From positions 247,965 through 311,964 of IMG/VR virus record IMGVR_UViG_3300042010_000129: a stretch of 64,000 bases of DNA, one strand, 5' to 3'. The notes beneath the pieces are model-generated. The model was given only the letters and a program-made list of their open reading frames with translations. It made no database searches and had not been told where the DNA came from. Position 1 is the first letter of the stretch. Each line of letters begins with the position of its first letter. The stretch comes from a virus (lineage: Duplodnaviria; Caudoviricetes). Shown in pieces: positions 16,179-60,988 of this stretch. The translations under genes were made by a program, and so were the position numbers.

Positions 16179-17819
16179 TTAATTCTCTTGGAAGCTGATA
16201 GAGGAACCGAAATTGCGGATATCGGCGGTCAGGGAAGCACGGCGGGCCGGAATGCTCGGGTCGATAACGAAATCGAGGTTGATATCGTTATTCGCGATAT
16301 CTGCCGGTTTGTTGTTACGGCTGTCGCAAATGGTTTCCCATTCGTACAAACCACGACCGCGTTTCACCGTTGCTGCTTCGGCGTCCACGATGTTTTTCAG
16401 CTGCTTGCGTTCGTAATCGTCGGCAGGGTTGAAAACCGATGGCAGGAAAGCACGACGAATCATTGCTTTGATGCCGTTTACCAGACGACGCACGTTCACG
16501 TTCTGGAAACCAGACGCGAAATTCTGCAAAGTCAGTTGTTCCATGATCACGAAACCACGGCCCGGAATTCGACGCACGTAGTTGATTTGCGCCTGTTCCA
16601 AAGCGTTGCGTTCGCGCAGGCTGTATTTCTTGGAAAGATCCGTGACTTTTACTTGACCACGATTCAAACCAGCCGGTGCCCAGTAGTAGGCACGAACGCG
16701 GTCGGTGTACGCGTATTGCGCAGCAACCAAACCGGAAATCGGGCAAAAGAATTTCTTGCCGGAAACGTCGTCGGTAATCTGACCACGCGGGCCATACATT
16801 GCCGAGTAGCTGGAACTCAGGTTCAGGATATTGCGACGGTAATTCACAGCACGCGAAACTTCTTCGTATTCGTGCGGCAAATCAACAATCGAAATCGCGT
16901 CACCGCGTGCAGTTGCTACGGCGTCAATGCGACGGTGAATGATCGGGTTTTCGTAACCACAACCAACCAGCAATTGCACTGCGAATTGATCAGTATCGTC
17001 GATGCCTTCCCATGCGTTGCTCACTTCGGCCACGGTCGCACGCGCACCATCGGCGCCACCATCCAGACGTTCGAAAGCAGAAGTGCGGATTTCAACCGGT
17101 GGGCAAAGCGAATTGTTTTTCACTTTGATGTATTGCGAGAATGCGTTTACACGCGACTCGACAAACATCTGATTGCCTTCGCCATCCAGTTCGAATTTAC
17201 GCGAACACAGATACGATTCAACCGGAATGCTGGCGCTGCCCTGATAATTCAGGAAAACTTCCAGATAGAAATGCGTTGGGTCATTGAATTCACCGACTTC
17301 GGTTCCTTCCGGGTTTGCCGGACGAACCAATACAGTCAGTGCGCCTGCCCAATCGCCGGGGCTATTCGCGCAAACGTAAAGCAAAGCGTTTTTAACGCCC
17401 GGCTCGTTTACGTTGAAACCCAACACGTCGAGCGGATTCCCCAATACGCCTTGCGGTTTGTTGGTTCCATCGTCGAAATTCACCAGTTTAATAACTGGTT
17501 CCAATGCAGCGCTATCGTCAACCGAAAGGTAGGCGCCAGCGGTGCGGGCGGTATCGGCGTTTACTGCGCGTTTAATCCACATTGCGGTTTGCACCAAAAC
17601 GTGTTCTGCGCAATGCATGCCGTAGCCGTATTTGGAATAGTTCTTGTCACCGAACTTTTCCTTCAAATCTTGCGTATCGGTAACGTAAATCCATTCCGAC
17701 GTAGAGCCGCGAGCGGACTCGATCACAGCAGCCGCAATAGAGCTAATGACCGGCGAACCGCGTTGACTTACGTCGCGATCCTGATCATAAACCCCAGCGC
17801 TGGAGTTGGTAAAAGCCAT
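16179..17819 (-). CDS. Contractile tail sheath protein (546 aa)
   Basis: N-terminal SAGVY; YYWAPAGLNRG; C-terminal VNVRRL and ICDSRNNKPADIANN signatures. Confidence 0.92.
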   Translation of the reverse strand: MAFTNSSAGVYDQDRDVSQRGSPVISSIAAAVIESARGSTSEWIYVTDTQDLKEKFGDKNYSKYGYGMHCAEHVLVQTAMWIKRAVNADTARTAGAYLSVDDSAALEPVIKLVNFDDGTNKPQGVLGNPLDVLGFNVNEPGVKNALLYVCANSPGDWAGALTVLVRPANPEGTEVGEFNDPTHFYLEVFLNYQGSASIPVESYLCSRKFELDGEGNQMFVESRVNAFSQYIKVKNNSLCPPVEIRTSAFERLDGGADGARATVAEVSNAWEGIDDTDQFAVQLLVGCGYENPIIHRRIDAVATARGDAISIVDLPHEYEEVSRAVNYRRNILNLSSSYSAMYGPRGQITDDVSGKKFFCPISGLVAAQYAYTDRVRAYYWAPAGLNRGQVKVTDLSKKYSLRERNALEQAQINYVRRIPGRGFVIMEQLTLQNFASGFQNVNVRRLVNGIKAMIRRAFLPSVFNPADDYERKQLKNIVDAEAATVKRGRGLYEWETICDSRNNKPADIANNDINLDFVIDPSIPARRASLTADIRNFGSSISFQEN

Positions 17820-26786: not shown

Positions 26787-29686
26787 TCAGGTGCGTCCTC
26801 TTTCATGCGCGCCATGATTTGTTTGAACGTGGCGTTCGGATCAAGATCGTAGCCGAGGTCATCGCGTTGGCCTTTGAGAGTTTTCATCAGCACTTCGTTG
26901 AATGCGTATTTATCTTTCGTCTTGAAATCACCAGTCAATGCATAATTCCAACCTTCGCACTTGTCGAGCGAGTGGCCGAATTCAAAGTCGATTTCCAATT
27001 GGATATCAAACTTGAAGTTGTGACGTTTAATCATTTCGCGTTCTACGTCGTGAGTCAGTCCCTCTTCGATCATCTGAATTGCCAGCCAAATGTCTTGGTA
27101 AGCGCAGGAGAATTCAAGGGAGTCGTGTACGCTGTTCGCCTGAATGAAATCAGGATAGTGGCCGGTCTTCTGGAAATGCTCAAACCGGCGACGTTCGATG
27201 CAGCGCGCACCCGTCATCATGAAATCAGAACCCATGCCCTGTACTGGACTATTTACAGATTGCCGTTCCGCACGCGACGTGATGTTGCCCGCGTCTTCGT
27301 GAGAGTTCGGCGTGATCAAGCCCCACAGGTTACGGCGACGGCCTACAGGCGATTCCACATACAAATGCTTGCGTGCGTGTGCCTTGGCCTTATCGAACCA
27401 CTTACCGCCGACCGGGAATCGTTTAAAGAATTGTGTTGTCAATTCCTCAACCATTTCGACCGTGGCGTTGATGGACTTCGCTGTACCTTTCGCGCCTTGC
27501 TGGTAAATCAAACCGAAAATTACTTGCTTAACGGCTTGACGCATTACCTTGTCAACTTCCTCGATTGCTTTCCGGAAGAAGAACGCGGCGTTGATCTTGT
27601 GAACGTCACCCTTGAGGTCGATTTCCTTGGCAAGATCCATTGTCGGTTTGCGTTTGAATTTCTCACGCAATTTCAAACCGATCCGGAATGCTTCCGCTAC
27701 CGCGCTGTCGCCAGAAATCAACGACCAGCAGCGTACTTCGTGCGCCGAGTAGTCCACCTTAATAATTATTCGACCGTCAGGTGCAATGAACAATCGTTTA
27801 ATCAGTTTACCCATTTCACTACGCGACGGAATTGTCTGCAACGTAGGATCGCGGGCCGATGTTCGACCAGTAACCACGTCGAGATAACCGAACCGAGGAC
27901 GCATGCAGCGGTCGAATCGGAAGTCTTCGTCTTCGCCCCATTTTTTAATGAAGCTCTTCACATACGCGTTGTAAAGTTTTTCGATCTTCGTCAGTTCCGT
28001 GAACAGCTTAATTTCCGGAACGTCTTCGTATTTCTTTTGGAAGTCTTTGTCGATCTTACCCAAGCCCTTTTTGTTCATCGTCAGGGGCTTGAGTTTCAGC
28101 ACTTCGAAGAACAGCAGTTGCTTGTGTTCCTCCTTGTTAATCTTGAAGAGCTTCGTTTTCGTTCGACCGAATAGACCCATGGCCGGGACGCCCGAGCGTT
28201 TGGCAAGAAGCTTGTTAGCTTTCTGTACCCCCTCGGATTCGTACAGCGCTTTAAGCACGCGGTTTTTCTCGCGCACAATATGCGAGTCTTTCGACTTGAG
28301 TTTGAACAGCCAGTCGATATCGACATACGAGCCGTTGAACTCAAGGTTAGACAGCGTGTGAATCTGATCGCTAAGCTGTTCGGTAACGAGCGAGAAATAC
28401 TTGTCGTAACCGATTGTCTTCGCGTATTTCATCTGCAATTTTTGAATGTGCAGCAGGACGATTACGTCGAGGGCCATGTACGTTAAAACAGGCCCTTCCA
28501 AATCCATGTCCGCGATGAATGCCCGCTGTTCCTTACCGAAGTCGGATTCGTAATAGGCGCGACAGCCGTACTGCATGCAGATATTGAGCAACGAGTAATA
28601 GTTTCGCCCGCTGATCCCTTGAATCGTTTTGTGGTTTTCATCCTTGGCAAATTCTGCCGAGATAACACACCACAGCGGCGTCTTGAAATAACGAACGCCG
28701 AGGTCACGACGTGCAGCGATCAAATCGAACGCGGCGTTTGCGTAGAGGTTGTACTTGTTCTTCGATTTGTGTTCGAAGTAATCGCGCAATTTCTCTTTGA
28801 TGTACGCAAGTTCTTTCGGGAGGAACGGCGTATCCTTGTGCAGGAATGGCAGGATGTACGCCTTCCCCGTTTCAGTCGCGAACTGCCACGTCACCGTGTA
28901 GTTCTTTCGCCGTTTCAGACTTCGGGCCTCCGTGTCGATTGACACGACTTCCGCGTTGGTAATGTCCTTCAACATTTTGTCGAATTTCTTAATCGTATCA
29001 ACCATCACGATTTTGTAATCCAACTTCGGAACCTTGTACATCATCTTGCCGTCGTTAAGACAGGTCGTCAGGTTCCGCGCCACGTACCCGGCTGCTGCCA
29101 TCGTGTCATCGGATTTCTGCAATGACCGCAACGACAAAGTAGAGACGTGGTTGAATTTGTGCGTGTCGCCTTTTACCGTGACCTTGGCTTTGATTGGCAC
29201 ACCGTAAAAGTGCTGCCACAAAATACCGCGTTCACTTTTGTGCTGCGAAATGAAATCGCCGCTGATTGCTTTGGTCGGGTCAGGCCCGAACGTCACAACC
29301 GTATCCGGTTTGTAAACCGAGATAACATATTCCAAACGCTTTTTGAATTCCTGCTGTGCCAGTTCCACAAACGCAGGCGCACCGCCTACGGTTTTGAAGC
29401 TGTGATAACTCATGCACAACCAGTTGTAATCGTCGAGCTTGTGCGGTGCCTTGTTAAAGTTCTCTGCCAACTCAAAAAGGTTTGACATGAGGTCGCCGGT
29501 TGCACCATCGAGAATGCGATTCTTCCGCATCGCTTCGCCCGGCATATAGTCCAACACAAACAGAATTTTCCCACGAGCTTTTTTCGTAACGTGCTTGGCG
29601 AGTTCCACACCATCGAAGCTAGTAATCTCGTACTGCTTCAGCGCCTTACTATACTTGTGTTTAAATTCTACATATTCACACTTCAT
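26723..29686 (-). CDS. polA: Family A DNA polymerase with N-terminal UDG-like domain and 3'-5' exonuclease (987 aa)
   Basis: Exo I SIDTE, Exo III YMALDV; TGRTSARDPTLQTIP; motif A DYSAHEVR, motif B RQAVKQVIFGLIY, motif C VHDS; N-terminal ~230 aa UDG-like (ILFVLD..PG...GATGDLM...YKPDTVVTFG). Confidence 0.92.
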   Translation of the reverse strand: MKCEYVEFKHKYSKALKQYEITSFDGVELAKHVTKKARGKILFVLDYMPGEAMRKNRILDGATGDLMSNLFELAENFNKAPHKLDDYNWLCMSYHSFKTVGGAPAFVELAQQEFKKRLEYVISVYKPDTVVTFGPDPTKAISGDFISQHKSERGILWQHFYGVPIKAKVTVKGDTHKFNHVSTLSLRSLQKSDDTMAAAGYVARNLTTCLNDGKMMYKVPKLDYKIVMVDTIKKFDKMLKDITNAEVVSIDTEARSLKRRKNYTVTWQFATETGKAYILPFLHKDTPFLPKELAYIKEKLRDYFEHKSKNKYNLYANAAFDLIAARRDLGVRYFKTPLWCVISAEFAKDENHKTIQGISGRNYYSLLNICMQYGCRAYYESDFGKEQRAFIADMDLEGPVLTYMALDVIVLLHIQKLQMKYAKTIGYDKYFSLVTEQLSDQIHTLSNLEFNGSYVDIDWLFKLKSKDSHIVREKNRVLKALYESEGVQKANKLLAKRSGVPAMGLFGRTKTKLFKINKEEHKQLLFFEVLKLKPLTMNKKGLGKIDKDFQKKYEDVPEIKLFTELTKIEKLYNAYVKSFIKKWGEDEDFRFDRCMRPRFGYLDVVTGRTSARDPTLQTIPSRSEMGKLIKRLFIAPDGRIIIKVDYSAHEVRCWSLISGDSAVAEAFRIGLKLREKFKRKPTMDLAKEIDLKGDVHKINAAFFFRKAIEEVDKVMRQAVKQVIFGLIYQQGAKGTAKSINATVEMVEELTTQFFKRFPVGGKWFDKAKAHARKHLYVESPVGRRRNLWGLITPNSHEDAGNITSRAERQSVNSPVQGMGSDFMMTGARCIERRRFEHFQKTGHYPDFIQANSVHDSLEFSCAYQDIWLAIQMIEEGLTHDVEREMIKRHNFKFDIQLEIDFEFGHSLDKCEGWNYALTGDFKTKDKYAFNEVLMKTLKGQRDDLGYDLDPNATFKQIMARMKEDAPEWALKQQKFWKSQGVKITAKA

Positions 29687-46835: not shown

Positions 46836-47141
46836 CTATTTGCGAGTCCACGTGAGTTCCAGATCGTAGCCGAGTTTGGCGGCGATCCCGATTAACACAT
46901 CGAGGTCGGCACACACCAATTGTTCGTGATCGTTATCTGGAAGTTCATCGTAAAAATATGGAGTGAGTTCGCGATTCAACGGCCCGCCCATGACAAGGTA
47001 TTTACCGCGTACAAACTCACGGAAAACACGTGGTTTATCGTATGCGGATTTCCCTTTAGTTTGGGGCCGGGCCTGACGCTCCAATTCATTGAGGATCAGA
47101 GCGTAAAGTTCCCGCTTCATTTTATTTACAGTATGGTTCAT
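46836..47141 (-). CDS. Hypothetical protein (~101 aa)
   Basis: Start chosen at the ATGA overlap with the upstream stop. Confidence 0.45.
   Translation of the reverse strand: MNHTVNKMKRELYALILNELERQARPQTKGKSAYDKPRVFREFVRGKYLVMGGPLNRELTPYFYDELPDNDHEQLVCADLDVLIGIAAKLGYDLELTWTRK
47123..47134 (-). promoter_or_regulatory. ATACTGTAAATA motif (~300 nt upstream of sbcD)
   Basis: Exact copy of the recurrent motif. Confidence 0.5.
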
Positions 47142-47530
47142 TCGCGATTTACCGTGACCGTGAAGTGGATGCGTTTGCGTGGCTGGCACAACTGGAATTC
47201 GGTGTAGACGGTGCCGAGTTGCTTGCGCCCTACTTTGTGTGCGTGGCGGCGACCGTACAGCGTGAGGTCAAGGATTTTATTTCCGTCCGTATCGTTGAGG
47301 CGCACAACGCAGCGATTTTTAATATCGTGGATTGAATAGGTCGCAACCTGTGTGGAAAAAGGATCGTAAATGGCGCCACTCGTTTTGAGGTCTTCCATGA
47401 ATTCGCCAATGTGTTTACCGAATTCTTCACGTTCACGTTTTTCGTCACGCGGGGTCGTTACGATTTCTTCGACCTGCTGCTGGATGTGAGCCAACAGGCG
47501 GCGCGCATTGATTTTTTCGAGCGGAGTCAT
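47138..47530 (-). CDS. Stand-alone tail-sheath C-terminal-domain-like protein (130 aa)
   Basis: INARRLLAHI vs sheath VNVRRLVNGI; GAIYD vs RGLYE; EFQLCQPRKRIHFT vs DFVIDPSIPARRASLT. Confidence 0.55.
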   Translation of the reverse strand: MTPLEKINARRLLAHIQQQVEEIVTTPRDEKREREEFGKHIGEFMEDLKTSGAIYDPFSTQVATYSIHDIKNRCVVRLNDTDGNKILDLTLYGRRHAHKVGRKQLGTVYTEFQLCQPRKRIHFTVTVNRE

Positions 47531-47844
47531 GCGAGATTCCTGTGACGAAGACGCAGGCAGGAGCCGGGATAAAGAACTTTCGGATCAAACAGATTATTGA
47601 TGAACGCCACACGGTCGGCGTCCACTTCAAAACGCTGCGCAATCTCCACCAATTTGTCGTTGGTTTTGATGTGGTAAATGTTGTAGCGGTCGCCCAGTTC
47701 GCGTTCGTACTGAACATCACTGAAACACTCGGCAGGCGGCGTGTAAACGCAACGGGTGCGAAAGATCGGAACGTCCAGCGGATTCAATTGCGCGGCCAGC
47801 ATTTCGATTTGTTCTTCGCGGTCTAGCTCGACAACTGCATTCAT
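47527..47844 (-). CDS. LysM domain protein (105 aa)
   Basis: YHIKTNDKLVEIAQRFEVDADRVAFINNLFDPKVLYPGSCLRL. Confidence 0.8.
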   Translation of the reverse strand: MNAVVELDREEQIEMLAAQLNPLDVPIFRTRCVYTPPAECFSDVQYERELGDRYNIYHIKTNDKLVEIAQRFEVDADRVAFINNLFDPKVLYPGSCLRLRHRNLA

Positions 47845-48435: not shown

Positions 48436-48783
48436 TTAATCCCCTGTAATTGGTTTCCAAAGTTTCGTGTATTGCAAAACCTTTGGTACAGCGTCACACC
48501 ATACTGGCATCACCACAAGGCACGATGGTTCCGCGTTGCAGATAGTGTTTTCATGGCCTTGGTGGCATACCAAAGTCTCACGGATTTTATCGAACTCACG
48601 GCGATTAACACGCACCGTTACTTTGCGAAAAGAATGAATAAACCATTCGATGTATTCGGGATACTTTGGATCGTCGAAAATCGTATGGGCAGTCAGGATG
48701 GAATGCGCGACCAATGTCGGCACCATGTAATCAGGCGCTTCGTCGAGAACTGCGATGTACATTTTGCTGTAGCGTTCGTTCAT
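48436..48783 (-). CDS. Peptidyl-tRNA hydrolase II (Pth2)-like protein (115 aa)
   Basis: KMYIAV...LVAHS...WF..SFRKVTVRV...GHENT pattern of phage Pth2-like proteins; ATGA-coupled start. Confidence 0.55.
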   Translation of the reverse strand: MNERYSKMYIAVLDEAPDYMVPTLVAHSILTAHTIFDDPKYPEYIEWFIHSFRKVTVRVNRREFDKIRETLVCHQGHENTICNAEPSCLVVMPVWCDAVPKVLQYTKLWKPITGD

Positions 48784-49181
48784 TCCGGTGCCACTTCCTT
48801 GGTTTCGATTTGCCATTCGATTTTGTAAGTCTTCGCGAACATGCGAGCCAGACGCAGAGAACGGAATTGCAGTTTGAAACACGGCCATGAGTATTCAACG
48901 ATGGCGCCGCGTTTGGTTGCGTAAATGGTGTAGGGTTTTTCCGTCTTCTGCGCACGCGCCAAATCCAACCAGCGTGCGATGTGTTCAAGTTCGCGAGAAC
49001 CTGCCACGGTTTCAGTTACGGTCAGCGACATAGGCGCGGGCACGTAGTCGGAAGGCCGGGACGTGAGTTCGATTCCCTGCAAACCTTCAACGAACGCACC
49101 GTCGGCTTCCAGCGCCATCGGAATATTTTCGAAAGTTACCTGATATTTACGCAGGTCTTCCGGGCAGATATTCCCGATCAT
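48780..49181 (-). CDS. RSLRLAR-family hypothetical protein (133 aa)
   Basis: C-terminal ATKRGA...FRSLRLAR. Confidence 0.55.
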   Translation of the reverse strand: MIGNICPEDLRKYQVTFENIPMALEADGAFVEGLQGIELTSRPSDYVPAPMSLTVTETVAGSRELEHIARWLDLARAQKTEKPYTIYATKRGAIVEYSWPCFKLQFRSLRLARMFAKTYKIEWQIETKEVAPE

Positions 49182-49573
49182 TCCAGCACTTCCATCATGA
49201 GACGATCAACGCTCAGGCCGATACGCTGGCACATGCCGGTCAACTGGTCACGGCTCAGACGATCAATGCGGCCCTGCAAAATATCGTCAAGGCGATTGTT
49301 GGAAATGTTCAACTGCTGACAAATCACTTCGGGGTTTTGACCGAGGCGTTTGATTTCACGACCGAGGGCGCGCAGCAGGTAGCTACGAATTTTCATGGCG
49401 AGCGATTCTTCAGGATTTTCGCAGATCGCATCCCACACGCTTTCGTAACACTGGCGTTTGGTTTCTTCGTCCACGGAACTTATGACGATATCGACCGCCA
49501 GAACATTTTGGTCAATGGCTTCAGGCGGGTTGTTGGTGTGGTCGCAGATAACCGTATATTCGTGTCGGCTCAT
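49178..49573 (-). CDS. Fusion of a sheath C-terminal peptide to a HigA/XRE (HTH_37-like) domain (131 aa)
   Basis: Residues 5-31 match the local sheath (12/27 identical); residues ~45-125 SVWDAICENPEESLAMKIRSYLL...NISNNRLDDILQGRIDRLS resemble HigA-type XRE proteins. Confidence 0.6.
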   Translation of the reverse strand: MSRHEYTVICDHTNNPPEAIDQNVLAVDIVISSVDEETKRQCYESVWDAICENPEESLAMKIRSYLLRALGREIKRLGQNPEVICQQLNISNNRLDDILQGRIDRLSRDQLTGMCQRIGLSVDRLMMEVLE

Positions 49574-50073
49574 TTTCTTTTTGTCCGGTAGTTATGTTCA
49601 GGAATGCGGCACCCCTTCATTTCGACGCGGGCCAAACGGGCCGAGCGGTATTTGAAGACGTAATGCTGGTTTTCTACGCCACGCTCACGCACGTAAACTT
49701 CTACGCCACGCGTTGTGTGCTTGAGAACGAAATAGTATTTGGATTGTGGCTGAACTTCGCGGAAAGGATCGCAGTGGATTTCCATCCCATGGATATGACC
49801 GATTTTTCCGGTGAACACATTTTCCAGTTCAACCTGTTGTTTCTCGATGATTGTTTCGCCACCGTGCGAAACTTTCACACATTTACGTTGCGGCAAATCA
49901 ACTGGAAACGATGCCGGAAAACTCCACATTGTCCACCGGCCCTTTTTAGGCAAGCGGCCACCCAACGGACAGTCAGCAAGCGGGCCGTTCGGCGTGGAAA
50001 TGGAAAGCAATTTCGCGCTGTCGGCCATTGCCCAGCCGCGCTGCACTTCGGAACCGAATACGTTTACGTGCAT
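49570..50073 (-). CDS. RSLRLAR-family hypothetical protein (167 aa)
   Basis: HTTRGV...YRSARLAR. Confidence 0.55.
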   Translation of the reverse strand: MHVNVFGSEVQRGWAMADSAKLLSISTPNGPLADCPLGGRLPKKGRWTMWSFPASFPVDLPQRKCVKVSHGGETIIEKQQVELENVFTGKIGHIHGMEIHCDPFREVQPQSKYYFVLKHTTRGVEVYVRERGVENQHYVFKYRSARLARVEMKGCRIPEHNYRTKRK

Positions 50074-50468
50074 GGGTTCACCAGTTCGGCATTTTTGAAC
50101 TTGGTATTTTTCACCATCGTTTTAAACGCCACACGGGCCAGACGCAGCGAGCGGAAATGCTTACCGAATGATACGGCACCTTTGGGCGTAGCACGACAGA
50201 ACAGACGCGGCGACATTATACGCCGGTATGTACGTTCGAACACTTCACGCATAGCGCTCTCATGCATTTTCGATGCACGAATGCGGTTGTCCCAAGCTGC
50301 GTCGAAAAATGAAACGTGGGTATCACAATGACTGGTCAGAAATTCTTCGGAAATTCCGAGTGCCGCCATTCGCAGTTTTGTCAGGCGTTCAATTTCTTCA
50401 CTGATCGGCAGACGCCAATCGCCTTTGCCACCGTAAGTATCAAAGCCTTCAGCGGTATAAAGTGTCAT
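50064..50468 (-). CDS. RSLRLAR-family hypothetical protein (134 aa)
   Basis: ATPKGA...FRSLRLAR. Confidence 0.55.
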   Translation of the reverse strand: MTLYTAEGFDTYGGKGDWRLPISEEIERLTKLRMAALGISEEFLTSHCDTHVSFFDAAWDNRIRASKMHESAMREVFERTYRRIMSPRLFCRATPKGAVSFGKHFRSLRLARVAFKTMVKNTKFKNAELVNPCT

Positions 50469-60407: not shown

Positions 60408-60720
60408 CGCGGGCTTCCTCAGTGTATTTGACCGGGCCGTCGTAGGGTTCGTGGGTGACAGCGTTGAAAAACACCGAACGATTTCGAGATTTCAACGTAG
60501 ACAATCGGTGTGCTTCCACCATCACATCACCATTCACAAACACGGCGCTGTGCAGGGCGCTAAATGGAACGGTGCGACGTTCGATAATCGTATCGCGACT
60601 AGCCCATTTCTTTTTCTTCCAGTCGCTGCCCAACATCCAGCCACCGGAAAACGTAGGCTCTTTGCCGGGCGCCTGAAACGAATGGCGCCACACGTGAACA
60701 GTCGAAAATGATTTAGCCAT
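60373..60720 (-). CDS. Hypothetical protein, paralog of 59815..60108 (115 aa)
   Basis: VWRHSF..FSGGWMLG..FFNAVTHEPYD; start MAKSF overlaps the upstream stop. Confidence 0.6.
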   Translation of the reverse strand: MAKSFSTVHVWRHSFQAPGKEPTFSGGWMLGSDWKKKKWASRDTIIERRTVPFSALHSAVFVNGDVMVEAHRLSTLKSRNRSVFFNAVTHEPYDGPVKYTEEARDDSDETPDQTA

Positions 60721-60988
60721 CTTTGCGATCCCATTTCCATACGAGGTCAACATCGAAACCCATGGTGCCCAACGCATGCACCAATTTATCCAGCGGAATT
60801 TCGAAAAGATCACCCTGATTCATCTGCACGATTTCTTCCGCTGTAAACTGGAAGTTTTCGAGGACGTATTCGGGCGTCCAGCCCTGTTTGCGAATCTCAC
60901 GAATGACGCGAGCGAACGCCTGCGATTTGGTGTGCTTCACAGCAGCATCGCCCGGCGTGTCGAATTGTTTGAAAATGTTTTTGCTCAT
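60713..60988 (-). CDS. HigA/XRE (HTH_37)-like protein (91 aa)
   Basis: MSKNIF...IREIRKQGWT...NQGDLFEIPLDKLVHALGTMGFDVDLV resembles HTH_37-type proteins. Confidence 0.55.
   Translation of the reverse strand: MSKNIFKQFDTPGDAAVKHTKSQAFARVIREIRKQGWTPEYVLENFQFTAEEIVQMNQGDLFEIPLDKLVHALGTMGFDVDLVWKWDRKDG

Follow-up and report, generated by a model that had tools for sequence, protein, structure and literature searches.

A tail-sheath hairpin joined to a HigA-type antitoxin domain in a Lu11/HRDY3-like jumbo phage

A small protein encoded in a 64,000-nt stretch of jumbo-phage DNA (hereafter, the window) carries a copy of a tail-sheath hairpin at its N-terminus, followed by a linker and an HTH_37/HigA-type domain (Table 1). 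Judged from its sequence, it combines a probable phage orphan antitoxin, which is a known kind of protein, with an unexplained piece of sheath that is under selection and is found across a group of jumbo phages. The protein is best read as two separable accessory modules, each working alone, namely an anti-HigB antitoxin and an old sheath hairpin. Antitoxin activity taken by itself appears slightly favoured; an even chance is given to the fuller reading, in which an orphan antitoxin that targets a Gp49/HigB toxin of the host is joined, without any need for the join, to an orphan sheath hairpin acting as a competitive ligand.

Table 1. Coordinates of the hairpin-HTH_37 gene, its parts and related features in the window
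Feature	Position	Strand	Basis
Sheath hairpin + linker + HTH_37/HigA-type domain, 131 aa	49178..49573	-	Profile matches, purifying selection
Residues 5-31, orphan copy of the tail-sheath C-terminal (handshake) beta-hairpin, ICD-x-TNN motif	49481..49561	-	PHROG, BLAST, shuffles
Residues 38-50, N-terminal arm with VWDA motif, predicted toxin-binding surface	49424..49462	-	Modelled interface
Residues 79-97, HTH helices 2-3, family DNA-contact residues replaced	49283..49339	-	3/13 conserved positions kept
Matching hairpin, residues 493-519 of the phage's own sheath gene (16179-17819)	16263..16343	-	BLAST
"Mini-sheath", homologue of two helices of the sheath C-terminal domain, other strands replacing the hairpin	47138..47530	-	hhalign
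Second orphan HTH_37 protein, 91 aa, without hairpin	60713..60988	-	33.6 bits

The window is part of a Lu11/HRDY3-like jumbo myophage, and an adjacent 241-aa gene shares 76%, 63% and 34% identity with HRDY3, Lu11 and PaBG, respectively. Since these relatives infect Pseudomonas, the host of this phage is probably Pseudomonas too. The gene has ATGA overlaps with both neighbours and sits within a variable island of small genes, with sbcC on one side and sbcD on the other, where gain and loss of genes are frequent. A sigma-70 scan yielded fewer sites than were obtained with shuffled sequences, and neither NCBIfam nor PADLOC had a match for the protein or its neighbours. Three neighbouring genes on the minus strand (48780-49181, 49570-50073 and 50064-50468) have in common a short F/Y-R-S-x-R-x-A-R motif; this family expands and contracts across related loci, and in two instances the hairpin is fused to one of its members.

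The C-terminal part of the protein matches Pfam HTH_37 over residues 41-123 (34.6 bits versus a cut-off of 27) and also phrog_2339, which bears out an earlier reading made from the sequence alone that this half resembles HigA-type antitoxins. In the AlphaFold model residues 41-130 are folded, with a pLDDT of 86-97, and the XRE fold can be superimposed on 2A6C with an rmsd of 0.7 over 62 columns. Gp49 and HTH_37 are known to pair as toxin and antitoxin of the HigBA type (PMC7157771), and toxins of the Gp49 family cleave mRNA in a ribosome-dependent manner (PMC11980606). A Gp49-like toxin gene is located upstream of HTH_37 in 63 of the 80 bacterial loci of the subfamily, and the closest non-phage match, P0012, adjoins a Gp49 gene with the toxin upstream. 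On the phylogenetic tree, the HTHs of Lu11-like phages form one group (95/91) adjoining a TA antitoxin. No toxin gene was found within the window or related loci, nor was a Gp49/HigB toxin found in five related phage genomes, in a search whose positive control worked. The earlier statement that no toxin is recognisable nearby holds, and through the relatives alone a toxin elsewhere in the genome of this phage is excluded. That Gp49 toxin is carried by 26 phage records, none of them from Pseudomonas phages. Compared with Gp49 (PF05973)/HTH_37 (PF13744) pairs (PMC7157771; 2A6C), the phage protein has the antitoxin domain and the N-terminal VWDA arm, modelled on the toxin, in common, but it belongs to a lytic-type jumbo phage, comes without a toxin gene, bears a sheath hairpin at its N-terminus and has its DNA-reading residues replaced. 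The second orphan HTH_37 protein of the window has an even more altered recognition helix and a counterpart in G002. In two Pseudomonas loci (L088:624-1526 and L127:861-1532) the frame of the Gp49 toxin runs on over the antitoxin gene with no stop.

Modelling of residues 38-131 in complex with a Gp49 toxin gave a score of 0.92 versus 0.00 for the best control, but a stand-in toxin was used, its cognate antitoxin was included in the alignment and near relatives of a true partner pass as well, so that the model speaks for a retained surface and a likeness rather than for binding. The runs agreed in at least 98% of contacts and the pLDDT of the partner was 90; the mark set for the complex score is reached by 58 of 80 solved pairs and 2 of 110 mismatched pairs. 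A search for solved Gp49/HTH_37 complexes of this subfamily yielded none, the closest toxin being 6AF3 (E 3.6e-4). The modelled interface comprises residues 38-50, 60, 64, 67-68 and 99-104, and the family consensus is kept at 9 of 12 interface positions, against the low figure for helices 2-3 given in Table 1 (Fisher p 0.017). W47 is invariant in phage and TA members, and dN/dS is only 0.09 for residues 44-58 of the arm. The toxin-binding arm is thus predicted to be retained in the phage protein.

The helices that read DNA in this family present a different picture. The DNA-contact residues are replaced (Q81P, and S-N-N in place of T-Q-P at positions 91-93), and by this criterion the phage protein appears no longer to read the operator of the family, although the TA-linked antitoxin P0012 is likewise without T-Q-P. 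The conservation of T-Q-P in a first comparison was partly built in by the search patterns, and an independent set, filtered by the VW motif, was used instead. One could hypothesise that the HTH acts as a phage regulator of transcription whose recognition helix has been re-specified, with the hairpin linking it to tail assembly. The XRE fold is intact (pLDDT above 90 in the model), purifying selection acts strongly on residues 78-100, and the phage clade conserves the new helix 2-3 motif, which is found in the HRDY3 clade as well. Because these new residues are conserved (dN/dS 0.08), the helix 2-3 surface could have acquired a new DNA or protein target, and may serve a regulator or bind a second partner. 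However, it is the DNA contacts of the family that have been replaced, while the conserved patch that was retained coincides with the modelled toxin interface; in addition, the C-terminal strand region of the family is modelled as a helix, and the hairpin is detached from the HTH in four related genomes. A regulator thus seems unlikely, and an antitoxin with a retained toxin-binding arm is the preferred reading of this domain.

The N-terminal part is recognisable as a piece of tail sheath. Residues 5-31 align without gaps to the local sheath with 12 of 27 positions identical (BLAST, 12/28, E 5e-5), and PHROG sheath families match residues 5-33 (E 1.6e-4). The match to the sheath has a BLOSUM score of 58, while 300 shuffled peptides compared with all six frames of the window gave a mean best score of 27.5 and a maximum of 39; since the observed score exceeds the maximum, the similarity is not due to chance. 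The sequence-only reading had made the same assignment, and the stretch it named, 16264-16344, is the right one, although its coordinates are one base off. A search with the hairpin across 2,053 phage records, from which 60 rows were sampled evenly, placed nearly all of the rows inside annotated sheath genes. Residues 5-31 also map weakly onto residues 603-631 of T4 gp18 (E 0.43), and we take them to be the beta-hairpin of the sheath C-terminal domain. When the hairpin by itself, or a 61-aa stand-alone form, was used in word-based searches, only self-like matches came back; such searches are too insensitive for this to be read as absence. Leucine-rich-repeat matches were rejected as chance. 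In the C-terminal domain of the sheath, arms from adjacent subunits add to the strands (PMC10457771). The handshake domain PF17482 (T4 gp18 residues 603-631; PMC10457771) contains a homologous beta-hairpin with the same C-D-x-x-N-N loop as is seen here. In contrast to that domain, the phage protein has the hairpin only, starting four residues before it and without the two backing helices, whose only match is the separate mini-sheath ORF, and the hairpin is an orphan of its own lineage, 33 kb away from the sheath gene.

The fusion is not confined to this phage, being found in nine sequence clusters (77-97% identity) and in Lu11_0114, and the two lineages in which it occurs have different junctions: the Lu11 linker retains remnants of an intervening domain, whereas that of the window clade does not. 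Elsewhere the two modules are separate. In G002 the hairpin is an ORF of its own, 61 aa long and identical in L013, L014, L017 and L020; it heads a g134-like protein in HRDY3 and L015 and a g167-like protein in L133. In G002, HRDY3, L015 and L133, HTH_37 is a separate gene downstream of the hairpin gene, while in PaBG the hairpin lies inside PaBG_00291 and no HTH_37 gene was found in the genome. In all Lu11-like loci, the hairpin and the HTH are at most one gene apart. The HTH tree does not discriminate between fused-first and split-first orders (p-AU 0.276); under either order, the join is dispensable.

Substitution rates calculated across nine genes revealed purifying selection on both modules: dN/dS was 0.27 (bootstrap 0.10-0.49) in the hairpin and 0.13 in the HTH, and 0.68 in the linker between them. 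One could suppose from this that the fusion itself is selected, the hairpin holding the antitoxin on sheath subunits, or on a TA complex that senses the sheath, where the toxin is released. The different junctions in two lineages, the constant proximity of hairpin and HTH in Lu11-like phages and the selection on both would agree with a tether, but the four split genomes, the PaBG hairpin without a detectable HTH_37 and a linker that is variable in length and fast-evolving make it improbable, and two modules working separately are preferred.

The orphan hairpins of different lineages are more alike (12.9 of 27 residues) than they are similar to sheaths (10.9 of 27), and therefore the capture of the hairpin is old. 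The idea that the hairpin was taken recently from the sheath of the phage itself was rejected, since for 9 of 10 orphans an orphan of some other lineage gave a higher score than did any of the sheaths tested. The C-D and N-N residues of the loop are invariant in all 15 orphan hairpins, which come from Pseudomonas-type and Erwinia phages. By these sequence comparisons the orphan hairpin is an old, selected and free module. The fusion could also be a one-off recombination scar without function, and two observations are in line with this, namely the disorder of the hairpin in the AlphaFold monomer model and the frequent turnover of genes in the island. Nevertheless, the recurrence of the fusion, a dN/dS interval lying below 1, the invariant loop residues, the mutual resemblance of orphan hairpins across lineages and the persistence of the hairpin through four different gene contexts largely refute a scar, which we consider extremely improbable.

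Another fragment of sheath is present in the same island. The alignment of the mini-sheath covers the sheath helices (residues 4-59; hhalign, 71.6%) and breaks off immediately ahead of the hairpin, and the mini-sheath is present in those of the Lu11-like loci examined that reach it. The earlier proposal that the hairpin is the part missing from the mini-sheath is correct as a statement of homology, but in a low-confidence model (pLDDT 49.6) beta-strands of the mini-sheath itself fill the position. A fold search with the mini-sheath retrieved generic helices, with a best Z of 5.5. The segment replacing the hairpin carries a basic motif, G-R-R-x-A-x-K-x-G-R, that is invariant in the mini-sheath family, and a weak homologue is encoded in PaBG at 27548-27910. 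In Alexandravirus and Dickeya phage AD1, a whole orphan sheath C-terminal domain of about 115 aa is found in about 44 records, including duplicates; stand-alone domains of this type (L004:3827-4174, L009:2842-3180, L010:2857-3201 and L011:2842-3195) are annotated as hypothetical and lie far from the sheath gene. It is conceivable that the hairpin and the mini-sheath together make up a handshake domain in two pieces, corresponding to the one-piece domain of Alexandravirus. The two match neighbouring stretches of the sheath C-terminal domain with no overlap and co-occur in Lu11-like loci, and in Alexandravirus one ORF matches the whole domain (95%). However, the hairpin slot is occupied by conserved strands of the mini-sheath, which has no similarity to the Alexandravirus protein, and a split domain is thus very unlikely.

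The sequence-only reading had interpreted the protein as a mimic of the antitoxin of a toxin-antitoxin-chaperone (TAC) system, with the sheath peptide as a structural-protein tag engaging a SecB-like chaperone pathway. Sensing of a tail protein by TAC is real, HigBAC being triggered when the lambda major tail protein gpV competes for the chaperone (10.1101/2024.02.24.581848), and a TAC defence toxin has been placed in the Gp49 family in a review (PMC11980606). In HigBAC, the chaperone SecB binds the ChAD, a C-terminal disordered tail with spaced aromatic residues (10.1101/2024.02.24.581848). The phage protein resembles this system in the conjunction of a HigA-type antitoxin and a phage tail protein, but both the aromatic-patterned ChAD and the gpV trigger, which belongs to a non-contractile tail and is not a sheath protein, are missing. 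No ChAD-like element is present, since only about 8 residues of the protein follow the HTH_37 match, and its extension is N-terminal with one aromatic residue, wrong for a ChAD in both position and composition. The bacterial relatives sampled are two-gene TAs: the distance from the VW motif to the stop is 82-93 residues, with no tail of ChAD length in 80 loci, and no SecB gene was detected among 25 downstream ORFs scanned in a one-query sample with 1.2-kb flanks. Moreover, titration of the chaperone by a tag would activate the toxin rather than hold it, and in relatives the hairpin is independent of the HTH. A chaperone tag is therefore highly improbable; what stands of the earlier interpretation is a HigA-type antitoxin homologue without its toxin in a recurrent fusion.

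Under the preferred reading, a HigA-type (HTH_37) antitoxin, corresponding to residues 38-131, would have been captured and kept without its toxin. Its N-terminal arm most likely binds, as modelled, a Gp49/HigB-type mRNase of the host and would keep the toxin off the ribosome, neutralising it in the cell. The hairpin would most plausibly be a competitive ligand, or decoy, for whatever binds that part of the sheath, be it a host sensor or the arms of the sheath itself; candidate targets are a host sheath sensor, the sheath arms and the mini-sheath. A bolder proposal, rather unlikely in our estimation, is that the hairpin of Lu11-like phages, PaBG and Alexandravirus is a decoy for an undescribed sheath sensor and that the window protein is the first phage antitoxin of HigA descent to act on Gp49/HigB toxins, in which case one small gene would block both the sensor and the effector. 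The literature searched contained no defence system that senses the sheath, and a recent survey lists the tail sheath only as a possible, not-yet-found target of bacterial pattern-recognition receptors (10.64898/2026.01.04.697583).

Orphan antitoxins of phages include T4 Dmd, acting against RnlA/LsoA, and AdfN and AdfM, acting against DarTG (PMC11825919, PMC13716836). As in these cases, an antitoxin or its homologue is carried alone by a phage, likely for counter-defence; the HTH_37 protein differs in belonging to another protein family and in the toxin at which it would be directed. No HigA-type phage orphan antitoxin was found in the literature searched, nor was direct evidence found of anti-phage defence by this toxin subfamily. 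An orphan HTH_37 protein of the same subfamily, phiKZ gp114 (phrog_2339), is widespread in phiKZ-like Pseudomonas jumbo phages, but it belongs to a separate branch inside the bacterial group, keeps T-Q-P-R and has no hairpin. In its own locus (L041:2492-2776), gp114 belongs to the subfamily that is linked to the toxin; its T-Q-P-R helix is intact and a toxin gene is lacking, and no functional study of it was found in the literature searched. If the antitoxin reading is true, the Gp49/HTH_37 pairs that are so common in Pseudomonas have a role against phage, the unrelated Lu11-like and phiKZ-like jumbo-phage groups captured the antitoxin separately as a counter, and gp114 acquires a function. 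The hairpin also offers a 27-residue bait for finding binders of the sheath handshake sheet.

Two full sheath genes each are present in HRDY3 (W02 213531 and 234671), Lu11 (W03 54463 and 33109) and PaBG (W01 166567 and 46891), and a second sheath gene of the window phage should lie outside the window. Another case of fusion and splitting in the same island concerns a phrog_5822 gene (48436-48783) and a LysM gene (47527-47844), both on the minus strand, which are separate in the window, while in Lu11 and HRDY3 a phrog_5822-like domain is fused to LysM in a protein annotated as an endolysin.
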